DNA from: Escherichia coli
Lineage (GTDB): Bacteria > Pseudomonadota > Gammaproteobacteria > Enterobacterales > Enterobacteriaceae
Assembly (NCBI RefSeq): GCF_003790525.1
Contig: NZ_CP033635.1
Length of the DNA: 64,000 nucleotides
Direction: 5' to 3' (one strand)
The notes under the pieces are model-generated. The model saw nothing but the letters and a program-made list of their open reading frames with translations. It made no database searches and was not told the origin of the DNA. A program made the translations under genes and the position numbers. Shown piece after piece: positions 21,858 through 60,669 of this stretch (within the stretch, counting starts at the first letter, position 1; each line of letters starts with the position of its first letter).

Positions 21858-21988
21858 ACTACCCCCTGTTGATTTGAACAGGGATTATGTCAGGATGAGG
21901 GCGCTTTCGCCAGTTGAAGTGGTGACGGCGACCTCACATTGTGGCAGTCTTTGCAGCACGAAAATGGAAGGATAATGAGGACAAAATG

Positions 21989-57667: not shown

Positions 57668-58327
57668 TTATTCCGCCAAAGTGCGTTTTTGTTGTTCGAG
57701 ATCGCGTTCAATGCCTTCACGAACGTCCTGGGGAATTTTCAGCGCGTCACCCAGTGCATTCAGGTAACTGCGTTCCATAAAATGGTCAATATCAATAGCC
57801 GCGCAGCTCAGGAAATAGATTTCCAGCGCCTCTTCTTCATTGCGGACCCCGGTAGCCAGGCGTTGTGGATCCAGCGGTTGTTCGATTGCCTGCTCAATGA
57901 GTACACGCCCCTGCTCTTCCACGCCGGCTTCACGCAATTGCTGGTCGATTGCCGCACGTTCTCTGGCATCAATATGACCATCACTTTTAGCGGCAAAGAC
58001 CAGCGCAAGGATCAAACGTTCCGTACGCTCATCCAGCGGCGTACTTTGCGCGCCAAACTGCGGTTCGTCCTGATGCGCCGCGCGAATTTTATCTTTGTAT
58101 TTATTCCACAGCACCGTACCCGCGACCGCTCCGCCGCCAACCAGTAACGCGTTGGTGCCATATTTCGTAAGAAGTTTCCGTGCTGATTTATTTGCGACCA
58201 GCAGCCCAGCCAGTCCGCCTAATGCGCCTGGCACTAAAAGTTTGCCCAATCCCTGATCCGCAGACGAGGAGGTAGAAGAACGGCTTTGCCCAAGCAGGGA
58301 TTGCAGTTGATTTAACCAGTTAGCCAT
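57668..58327 (-). CDS. yebE: DUF533 inner membrane protein YebE, 219 aa
   Basis: Full-length ORF. Confidence 0.9.
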
Positions 58328-58643: not shown

Positions 58644-59048
<405 letters not shown>

Positions 59049-59066
59049 TCAGGAGCGCAAGTTGCT

Positions 59067-59357
59067 TCAGGCCGCGTGTGAGGCATCTTCCTCTTCGGAT
59101 TCAGCACCGACGACCTGTGGGGACGGTAATTTGCCGGTTTTCAGAATGGTGCTCAGCACATCTTTTTGTTCTGCCAGCCATAGCGAAAGGGCTTCACGTT
59201 GCTCGTCTTCCATTTGCACTGGAGAATTTGTCAGCCAGGTGTCAAGCAGATCCGCCGTATCAAGCATTTTGTCATAAGCATCGGCTTCCTTTTTGCTGGT
59301 AAACGACATTTTCTCTTCGCCCTCACGAATGACTACGTATTTAACTTCAACCGCCAT
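59067..59357 (-). CDS. yebG: SOS-inducible protein YebG, 96 aa
   Basis: Full-length ORF; LexA box immediately upstream. Confidence 0.93.
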   Translation of the reverse strand: MAVEVKYVVIREGEEKMSFTSKKEADAYDKMLDTADLLDTWLTNSPVQMEDEQREALSLWLAEQKDVLSTILKTGKLPSPQVVGAESEEEDASHAA

Positions 59358-59374
59358 TTGCAGCCTCTCATAAT

Positions 59375-59394
59375 AACTGTGATTTTATACAGTA
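59375..59394. promoter_or_regulatory. LexA operator (SOS box) in the yebG promoter
   Basis: AACTGTGATTTTATACAGTA = CTGT-N8-ACAG palindrome, 20 bp upstream of the yebG start. Confidence 0.8.
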
Positions 59395-59437
59395 TATTTC
59401 TTCTCGGTTGGGAAATCAACATCAACAATAAAGACAC

Positions 59438-59453
59438 GCGCAAACGTTTTCGT
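59438..59453. promoter_or_regulatory. PurR operator (PUR box) in the purT promoter
   Basis: GCGCAAACGTTTTCGT matches the PurR consensus ACGCAAACGTTTGCGT at 14 of 16 positions; about 40 bp upstream of purT. Confidence 0.75.
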
Positions 59454-59490
59454 TTATACTGCGCGCGGAATTAATCAGGGGATATTCGTT

Positions 59491-60669
59491 ATGACGTTAT
59501 TAGGCACTGCGCTGCGTCCGGCAGCAACTCGCGTGATGTTATTAGGCTCCGGTGAACTGGGTAAAGAAGTGGCAATCGAGTGTCAGCGTCTCGGCGTAGA
59601 GGTGATTGCCGTCGATCGCTATGCCGACGCGCCAGCTATGCATGTCGCGCATCGCTCCCATGTCATTAATATGCTTGATGGTGATGCATTACGCCGTGTG
59701 GTTGAACTGGAAAAACCACATTATATCGTGCCGGAGATCGAAGCTATTGCCACCGATATGCTGATCCAACTTGAAGAGGAAGGACTGAATGTTGTCCCCT
59801 GCGCGCGCGCAACGAAATTAACGATGAATCGCGAGGGTATCCGTCGCCTGGCGGCAGAAGAGCTGCAGCTGCCCACTTCCACTTATCGTTTTGCCGATAG
59901 CGAAAACCTTTTCCGCGAGGCGGTTGCTGACATCGGCTATCCCTGCATTGTTAAACCGGTGATGAGTTCCTCCGGCAAGGGGCAGACGTTTATTCGTTCT
60001 GCAGAGCAACTTGCTCAGGCATGGGAGTACGCTCAGCAAGGCGGTCGCGCCGGAGCGGGCCGTGTAATTGTTGAAGGCGTCGTTAAGTTTGATTTCGAAA
60101 TTACCCTGCTAACCGTCAGCGCGGTGGATGGCGTCCATTTCTGTGCACCGGTAGGTCATCGCCAGGAAGATGGCGACTATCGTGAATCCTGGCAACCACA
60201 ACAAATGAGCCCGCTTGCCCTTGAACGTGCGCAGGAGATTGCCCGTAAAGTGGTGCTGGCACTGGGCGGTTATGGGCTGTTTGGTGTCGAGCTGTTTGTC
60301 TGTGGTGATGAGGTGATTTTCAGTGAAGTCTCCCCTCGCCCGCATGACACCGGGATGGTGACGCTAATTTCTCAGGATCTCTCGGAGTTTGCCCTGCATG
60401 TACGTGCCTTCCTCGGACTTCCGGTTGGCGGGATCCGCCAGTATGGTCCTGCTGCTTCTGCCGTTATCCTGCCGCAACTGACCAGTCAGAATGTCACGTT
60501 TGATAATGTGCAGAATGCCGTAGGCGCAGATTTACAGATTCGTTTATTTGGTAAGCCGGAAATTGATGGCAGCCGTCGTCTGGGGGTAGCACTGGCTACT
60601 GCAGAGAGTGTTGTTGACGCCATTGAACGCGCGAAGCACGCCGCCGGACAGGTAAAAGTACAGGGTTAA
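59491..60669 (+). CDS. purT: phosphoribosylglycinamide formyltransferase 2 (formate-dependent GAR transformylase) PurT, 392 aa
   Basis: Full-length ORF; ATP-grasp enzyme. Confidence 0.96.

Follow-up and report, generated by a model that had tools for sequence, protein, structure and literature searches.

A LexA operator and a PurR operator in the compact yebG-purT spacer of Escherichia coli, and their conservation across related species

Genes and layout of the yebG-purT spacer

In the 64,000-nucleotide stretch of Escherichia coli DNA that we analysed as a whole (hereafter the window), the divergent genes yebG and purT are separated by a short intergenic spacer. The genes and intervals of the locus are arranged as follows.

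58644..59000, minus strand: yebF, co-oriented with yebG and downstream of it (annotation)
59067..59357, minus strand: yebG, coding sequence of the DNA damage-inducible protein YebG, 96 aa (ORF list and RefSeq annotation)
59358-59490: yebG-purT spacer, 133 bp
59420..59430, no strand: junction between both -35 hexamers, 11 bp, the sole part of the spacer outside either promoter module
59491..60669, plus strand: purT, coding sequence of the formate-dependent GAR transformylase, 392 aa (ORF list and RefSeq annotation)

YebG was assigned to the NCBIfam equivalog NF007475 (206 bits, cut-off 161), and PurT to NF006766 (654 bits, cut-off 339) as well as to TIGR01142 (649 bits, also over the cut-off). 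According to the annotation, yebF and yebE follow downstream of yebG, and eda and edd are located past purT. A 601-bp query taken around the spacer found matches in 5425 of the 5426 complete E. coli genomes, with 100% identity to strain AR_0013. The initial annotation of this DNA had described a 133-bp spacer between yebG on the minus strand and purT on the plus strand, with a LexA box and a PurR box placed within 80 bp of each other. This layout is correct on both counts: the open reading frames delimit positions 59358-59490, with which RefSeq agrees, and the two boxes together span 59375-59453, i.e. 79 bp.

Scanning the region for promoter consensus matches revealed two promoter-like sites and no others, one on each strand. 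Promoters, operators, leaders and Shine-Dalgarno sequences make up 122 of the 133 bp of the spacer, and the junction at 59420-59430 is variable in sequence, both within E. coli and among species. A gap of 43 bp parts the edges of the SOS box and the PUR box, and their centres are 61 bp apart; neither box enters the -35 to +1 core of the opposite promoter. Counted from the inferred purT start, the SOS box occupies about -73 to -92, and the PUR box about -54 to -69 from the inferred yebG start; no shared or bidirectional operator, that is, one operator placed to affect both promoters, was found in the spacer. An Rfam scan of positions 58900-59700 (E<=1) returned no RNA family, indicating that the spacer holds no riboswitch or sRNA. 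In addition, neither a promoter-like site nor a minus-strand terminator-like site was detected in the yebG-yebF interval, in agreement with the published LexA-controlled read-through into yebF, a gene that is probably reached by transcription from the yebG promoter.

The SOS box and the yebG promoter

The following elements were recognized on the yebG side of the spacer.

59375..59394, minus strand: LexA operator (SOS box) AACTGTGATTTTATACAGTA, 20 bp, reading TACTGTATAAAATCACAGTT on the yebG strand, with the pattern CTG-N10-CAG
59391..59396, minus strand: candidate yebG -10 TATACT (consensus scan), which runs into the SOS box at its promoter-distal arm
59414..59419, minus strand: candidate yebG -35 TTGATT (consensus scan)
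59364..59369, minus strand: putative yebG Shine-Dalgarno sequence GAGAGG, 6 nt before the ATG, read from the sequence

The SOS box, which lies 17 nt from the yebG ATG, was read base for base at 59375..59394 as initially annotated, and represents the top match to the LexA weight matrix in the window. Its CTG (59377-59379) and CAG (59390-59392) enclose an AT-rich 10-nt centre, in keeping with the 20-bp palindrome TACTG(TA)5CAGTA, in which CTG-N10-CAG is the invariant part. The pattern CTGT-N8-ACAG occurs twice in the 64 kb, with the second occurrence at 21866.

The E. coli box also contains TGTGA at 59379-59383, which reads TCACA on the yebG strand and matches a CRP half-site perfectly, with a poor partner half; it may relate to the cAMP dependence reported for yebG. 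A CRP site over the SOS box was considered as a firm feature and rejected, as it comprises one good half-site only and is unconserved.

The promoter scan on the yebG strand yielded TTGATT-17-TATACT, with 9 of 12 consensus matches. The -35 is found as TTGATT or TTGAGT in Escherichia, Citrobacter, Klebsiella and Erwinia, and is not kept in Kosakonia. On the yebG strand, 77 of 79 species retain the TA just ahead of the 20-mer SOS box, and 67 of the 79 thereby have TATACT, while the LexA training sites (PMC3009722) display no comparable flank preference for TA. Because this flanking TA is conserved and other LexA sites show no such preference, TATACT is favoured as the yebG -10, and its exact register would be 59396..59391. 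The alternative is TAAAAT at 59387..59382, inside the SOS box. As a caveat, PMC6003448 shifts the RNA polymerase site of yebG downstream by 9 bp relative to an older computational annotation. Whichever -10 register applies, the SOS box covers the yebG -10 or the start site, so that its position over or adjoining the core promoter holds even with an ambiguous register.

The PUR box and the purT promoter

On the purT side, the elements were the following.

59431..59436, plus strand: purT -35 AAGACA (consensus scan)
59438..59453, plus strand: PurR operator (PUR box) GCGCAAACGTTTTCGT, 16 bp, filling the interval between the purT -35 and -10
59455..59460, plus strand: purT -10 TATACT (consensus scan)
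59477..59482, plus strand: putative purT Shine-Dalgarno sequence AGGGGA, 8 nt before the ATG

As for the SOS box, the letters at 59438..59453 correspond exactly to the PurR operator that had been proposed, which is the top PurR-matrix match of the window and the sole occurrence in it of the PUR consensus at one mismatch or fewer. The box follows the 16-bp form ACGCAAACGTTTTCNT, imperfectly palindromic around a central CpG, and has a single mismatch to the consensus, at position 1. Its other strand, ACGAAAACGTTTGCGC, is identical to the purHD operator listed in Cho 2011 (PMC3159470). The promoter scan yielded AAGACA-18-TATACT (9 of 12 consensus matches), and the PUR box, located between these two hexamers, overlaps the promoter of a purine gene. 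Transcription of purT would start near 59467. The motif AAAGACA, which includes the -35, is conserved across Enterobacteriaceae, and the Shine-Dalgarno sequence AGGGGA is invariant within the E. coli sample.

Weight-matrix scores of both operators

The LexA position weight matrix was derived from 17 boxes (Table 4 of PMC3009722, the yebG site left out), and the PurR matrix from 27 ChIP-chip motifs (Table 1 of PMC3159470, the purT site left out). The SOS box scored 23.0 bits, compared with 11.9 bits for the next-best position of the 64-kb window and a maximum of 18.9 bits over 20 window shuffles. For the PUR box, the score was 23.2 bits, against 12.8 bits for the next-best position and a maximum of 17.7 bits over 20 window shuffles. 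Both boxes are above the leave-one-out medians of validated sites (18.7 bits for LexA and 18.6 bits for PurR), and their scores thus designate them as strong members of their families; the SOS box ranks in the upper half of the validated sites, between dinI and sulA.

Short palindromes arise by chance, as exemplified by the second CTGT-N8-ACAG at 21866, and one or both motifs could in principle be functionless look-alikes. However, each box is the best match of the window by more than 10 bits and surpasses all 20 shuffles.

The second-best match to the LexA matrix, AACTGGTTAAATCAACTGCA (58302-58321, minus strand, 11.9 bits), is located just inside the 5' end of yebE, a gene for which the reported LexA dependence is only partial. 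With 11.9 bits, which corresponds to the level of shuffled sequence, this position was rejected as a LexA site.

Conservation across species

Scanning for YebG in one genome per species provided 80 loci, spanning Escherichia, Citrobacter, Salmonella, Kosakonia, Klebsiella, Raoultella, Erwinia, Pantoea, Serratia and Yersinia, and for 79 of these the DNA retrieved included purT. A YebG protein search for outgroups yielded close relatives only among the matches listed (at least 120). An SOS box (CTG-N10-CAG, 15-30 bits) was found upstream of yebG in all 79 species, 14-38 nt from the ATG, and a PUR box upstream of purT in the same 79 of 79, at 35-87 nt from the ATG and in seven sequence variants only. 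This conservation, maintained while the surrounding spacer diverges, also speaks against chance look-alikes, for which published ChIP-chip, Sort-Seq and deletion-strain data are in practice a refutation; we leave this explanation next to no chance.

yebG and purT form a directly divergent pair in 59 species, all of them Enterobacteriaceae or Erwiniaceae. We aligned 59 short spacers, those of 58 species loci together with that of the window, and observed conserved blocks at the SOS box with its flanking TA, the purT -35, the PUR box and the purT -10, with divergent sequence between them. The plus-strand block GCAGCCTC, which holds the yebG Shine-Dalgarno sequence, is also conserved in this alignment, and the purT -10 is TATACT or TATAAT in 59 of 59 aligned spacers.

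Spacer length is 128-141 bp in 58 of the 59 directly divergent species and reaches 261 bp in Klebsiella spallanzanii, whereas the neighbouring spacers are far more variable (58-124 bp for yebG-yebF, 36-862 bp for purT-eda). Such constancy next to flanking spacers that vary several-fold could hint at a constraint beyond packing, namely a functional coupling by which activity or repressor occupancy at one promoter alters the other, DNA damage tuning purT or purines tuning yebG. The routes for this would be crowded upstream contacts of the polymerases, PurR bending ~55-70 bp upstream of the yebG start, or supercoiling by divergent transcription. The distance between operator centres, which is 59-63 bp in 54 of the 59 species (69-73 bp in four and 188 bp in one), is in line with this possibility, and so are the -35 elements, 11 bp apart, as polymerase footprints assumed to extend from about -55 to +20 would overlap at ~59412-59439. 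However, the promoter, operator and leader elements occupying 122 of the 133 bp account for the constant length on their own, and packing is its best explanation since there is almost no free DNA to gain or lose.

Loci where the two modules are pulled apart

In 20 Yersiniaceae loci, representing 19 named species and one uncultured MAG (L054, L056, L057, L059-L062, L066-L069, L072-L076, L078-L080 and L082), dbpA is inserted between purT and yebG, on the yebG strand. In these loci, which belong to Yersinia, Serratia, Chimaeribacter and Edaphovirga, purT is divergent from dbpA and not from yebG. The intervening 460-aa gene was identified as the RNA helicase gene dbpA by its match to NF008744 (783 bits); in E. 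coli, dbpA is located elsewhere. The start codons of yebG and purT are 1.7-2.1 kb apart in Yersiniaceae, each gene keeping its own high-scoring box, and no strong copy of the other gene's box was detected near either of them in these loci. With both boxes kept a whole gene apart, the compact arrangement is dispensable, which argues against cross-talk and thus against functional coupling.

Smaller separations were also observed. In K. spallanzanii (L049), a 128-nt imperfect palindrome is located at the junction (~59430 equivalent), just upstream of the purT -35, with a predicted folding energy of -32.8 kcal/mol (z = -6.5). It is one of a family of dispersed repeats, of which E. coli genomes contain a median of 6 copies (60-80% identity), and we take it to resemble an ERIC/IRU element. 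Four other species (L006, L026-L028) carry 8 to 13 additional bp at the -35/-35 junction, and every larger spacer insertion is located at the equivalent of 59420-59430. That these insertions (+8 to +13 and +128 bp) sit exactly at the junction and shift the phase between the modules also weighs against coupling. Helical phasing of the operators was rejected as a constraint, centre-to-centre distances of 59-63, 69-73 and 188 bp all being found.

Variation within E. coli and Escherichia

The window differs from the MG1655 spacer by four single bases, at 59403 (C in the window, T in MG1655), 59411 (G/A), 59425 (A/G) and 59438 (G/A). The last of these is position 1 of the PUR box, with G in the window vs the consensus A in MG1655. 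Of 5406 complete E. coli genomes, 1444 (~27%) contain an identical copy of the 50-bp segment with the G allele; for the MG1655 version, with A, the count is 3697 of 5422 (~68%). The MG1655 allele of the PUR box scores 25.4 bits vs 23.2 in the window, G costing ~2 bits, and the weight-matrix model thus predicts for the G form a PurR affinity lower by this amount. Other variation in E. coli affects the centre of the SOS box (59380-59382) and the stretch from the SOS box to the purT -35. Among six other Escherichia spacers and the window, the sequence from position 2 of the PUR box through the purT ATG is invariant.

A structural variant was encountered in E. coli MS 21-1 (L083, NZ_CP146670.1, 3046300-3049600), where an insert of ~1.9 kb breaks the SOS box at the positions corresponding to 59381-59388 of the window and parts the yebG-coding side of the box from the remaining spacer. 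Encoded on the insert are an ISL3-like ISEc53 transposase and a member of the ClbS/DfsB family, to which the colibactin self-protection protein belongs.

Published experiments on both promoters

The presence, scores and conservation of the two sites are direct observations of our analysis, and their binding and regulation come from published experiments; both operators, their regulators and their placement are already known for exactly the yebG-purT locus. For yebG, TACTGTATAAAATCACAGTT is listed as the SOS box and induction by UV is confirmed in PMC3009722, which also places yebF under full LexA control, the UV-induced transcript touching both yebG and yebF. With AZT, yebG increases 4.4-fold; its expression is lexA-dependent by 9.7-fold, and its box has a heterology index of 6.3 (PMC11228462). 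In Salmonella, yebG increases 41-fold with nalidixic acid and is preceded by one box, 17 bp from the ATG (PMC8072944). For purT, Cho 2011 (PMC3159470) reported a PurR ChIP-chip peak and motif at the MG1655 position that matches 59438-59453. In that study, purT expression depends on adenine and purR, PurR with adenine represses purT, and PurR sites in general overlap the -35/-10 region.

Both promoters of this same spacer were dissected by Sort-Seq (Belliveau 2018, PNAS, PMC6003448). The yebG promoter displays LexA and RNA polymerase sites only, under the tested conditions, and is induced by mitomycin C. At purT, the repressor footprint is located between -35 and -10 and is gone in a purR deletion, and PurR is captured by affinity at the site only with hypoxanthine. 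Three 60-bp windows covering the spacer were mutagenised per gene, and PMC6003448 reports regulation in the gene-proximal 60 bp only of each reporter, which is at odds with a coupling of the two promoters. Coupling is likewise disfavoured by the transcriptome studies considered (including PMC11228462), where purT responds like other pur genes and yebG like other SOS genes.

By genomic SELEX, Shimada 2017 (PMC5493296) obtained the strongest sigma-S holoenzyme peak of the genome (390-fold) ~67 bp into purT, and a second peak (63-fold) in the yebG-purT spacer. The two peaks have the old MG1655 coordinates 1928846 and 1928972, corresponding to ~59430-59560 in the window. A sigma-70 scan around these peaks (~59430-59560) revealed no extra promoter.

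Oh and Kim reportedly described, in 1999, a stationary-phase induction of yebG that depends on cAMP and H-NS. LexA is also said to have been mapped by ChIP-chip (Wade, in 2005), and the yebG-purT intergenic region of E. coli K-12 to have been dissected by Lomba et al. in 1997.

The further inputs reported for yebG suggest that 'simple' repression may be an incomplete description of this gene. Such an extra input, exerted by the sigma-S holoenzyme or by cAMP-CRP over the SOS box or the spacer, would add to the action of LexA and PurR on their respective promoters and not replace it. It is suggested by the sigma-S SELEX peaks at the purT 5' end and in the spacer (PMC5493296), by the perfect TCACA half-site on the yebG strand of the E. 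coli box and by the reported cAMP-dependent induction of yebG in stationary phase, but the resolution of SELEX is coarse and the second CRP half-site is poor (ACTGT vs TGTGA). Moreover, the G at 59381 that creates TCACA is unconserved, being replaced by A or T in many species, including some Escherichia, and Sort-Seq gave LexA and RNA polymerase features only, under the conditions tested in PMC6003448. We regard an additional input to yebG as unlikely.

Comparison with known systems

The same locus of E. coli K-12 (PMC6003448, PMC3159470) has the gene order and 133-bp spacer of the window, an identical SOS box and a PUR box at the same place, and the window differs from it by the four spacer bases described above. 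The SOS boxes of sulA, umuDC and dinI share with that of yebG the CTG-N10-CAG pattern, the AT-rich centre and a core-promoter position close to the start codon, with no difference of substance between them. Likewise, the operators of purF, purHD, purMN and purL are promoter-overlapping 16-bp imperfect palindromes with the core AAACGTTT and a central CG. The purT operator does not differ from them, although purT was recognized as a member of the regulon later (ChIP-chip in 2011, confirmed in 2018). Another system compared is uvrA-ssb, where divergent genes also share a short common spacer with a LexA box. However, uvrA and ssb have one common SOS box, whereas the LexA box lying between yebG and purT serves yebG alone and purT has its own unrelated repressor.

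A probable pair of promoter modules back to back

Altogether, the spacer very likely consists of two independent modules, each under simple repression, that stand back to back and have no operator in common. In the yebG module, on the minus strand, a sigma-70 promoter with its -35 TTGATT at 59419..59414 and its -10 TATACT at 59396..59391 would drive yebG and then yebF by read-through. A LexA dimer bound to the SOS box at 59375-59394 would cover the -10 and the start region and exclude RNA polymerase, until DNA damage leads to RecA-stimulated self-cleavage of LexA and frees the promoter. In the purT module, on the plus strand, a sigma-70 promoter with its -35 AAGACA at 59431-59436 and its -10 TATACT at 59455-59460 would be blocked when purines are plentiful, PurR with hypoxanthine or guanine binding the PUR box at 59438-59453. 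Steric occlusion as the mechanism of repression, the start points of yebG and purT, and the exact register of the yebG -10 are what we infer. The compactness of the region would then reflect how tightly the promoters of two adjacent genes are packed into the interval between them, and no coupling device.

The initial annotation had interpreted the region as two unrelated regulons packed back to back, with a possible mutual interference between DNA-damage and purine control. Its assignment of LexA to yebG and of PurR to purT is sustained by the weight matrices, by conservation and by published experiments. The suggested interference is unsupported: the operators are 43 bp apart, Sort-Seq is directional in PMC6003448, and the modules are separable in evolution. 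Functional coupling of the two promoters is accordingly improbable in our view. A weak form, in which the near-constant spacing in Enterobacteriaceae and Erwiniaceae would reflect divergent supercoiling or competition for upstream polymerase contacts, seems a shade less probable still. Should this weak form exist, formate-dependent purine synthesis through purT would shift modestly, up or down, upon SOS induction of yebG, linking repair to nucleotide supply, and the locus would be a small example of cross-regulation by promoter architecture.

With two independent modules as the preferred reading, the finding is correct but ordinary, because both operators are real, conserved and already dissected by experiment. 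As the region has earlier served as a test case for Sort-Seq, it carries little weight as a discovery. The gain is comparative, with both boxes recovered in 79 of 79 species and a tight spacer whose only freely variable part is the 11-bp junction, and the case also indicates that an initial reading from the sequence alone was able to recognize real operators.

Finally, the centre of the SOS box (59380-59382) displays several variants in Escherichia (strain YP3, L084, and the loci L003 and L004), with the forms CTGTGATT, CTGAGATT, CTGTATTT and CTGTAATT. In the yebG box of Salmonella, a difference of one base alters the size of the uninduced ON subpopulation (PMC8072944), suggesting that these Escherichia variants might matter phenotypically.
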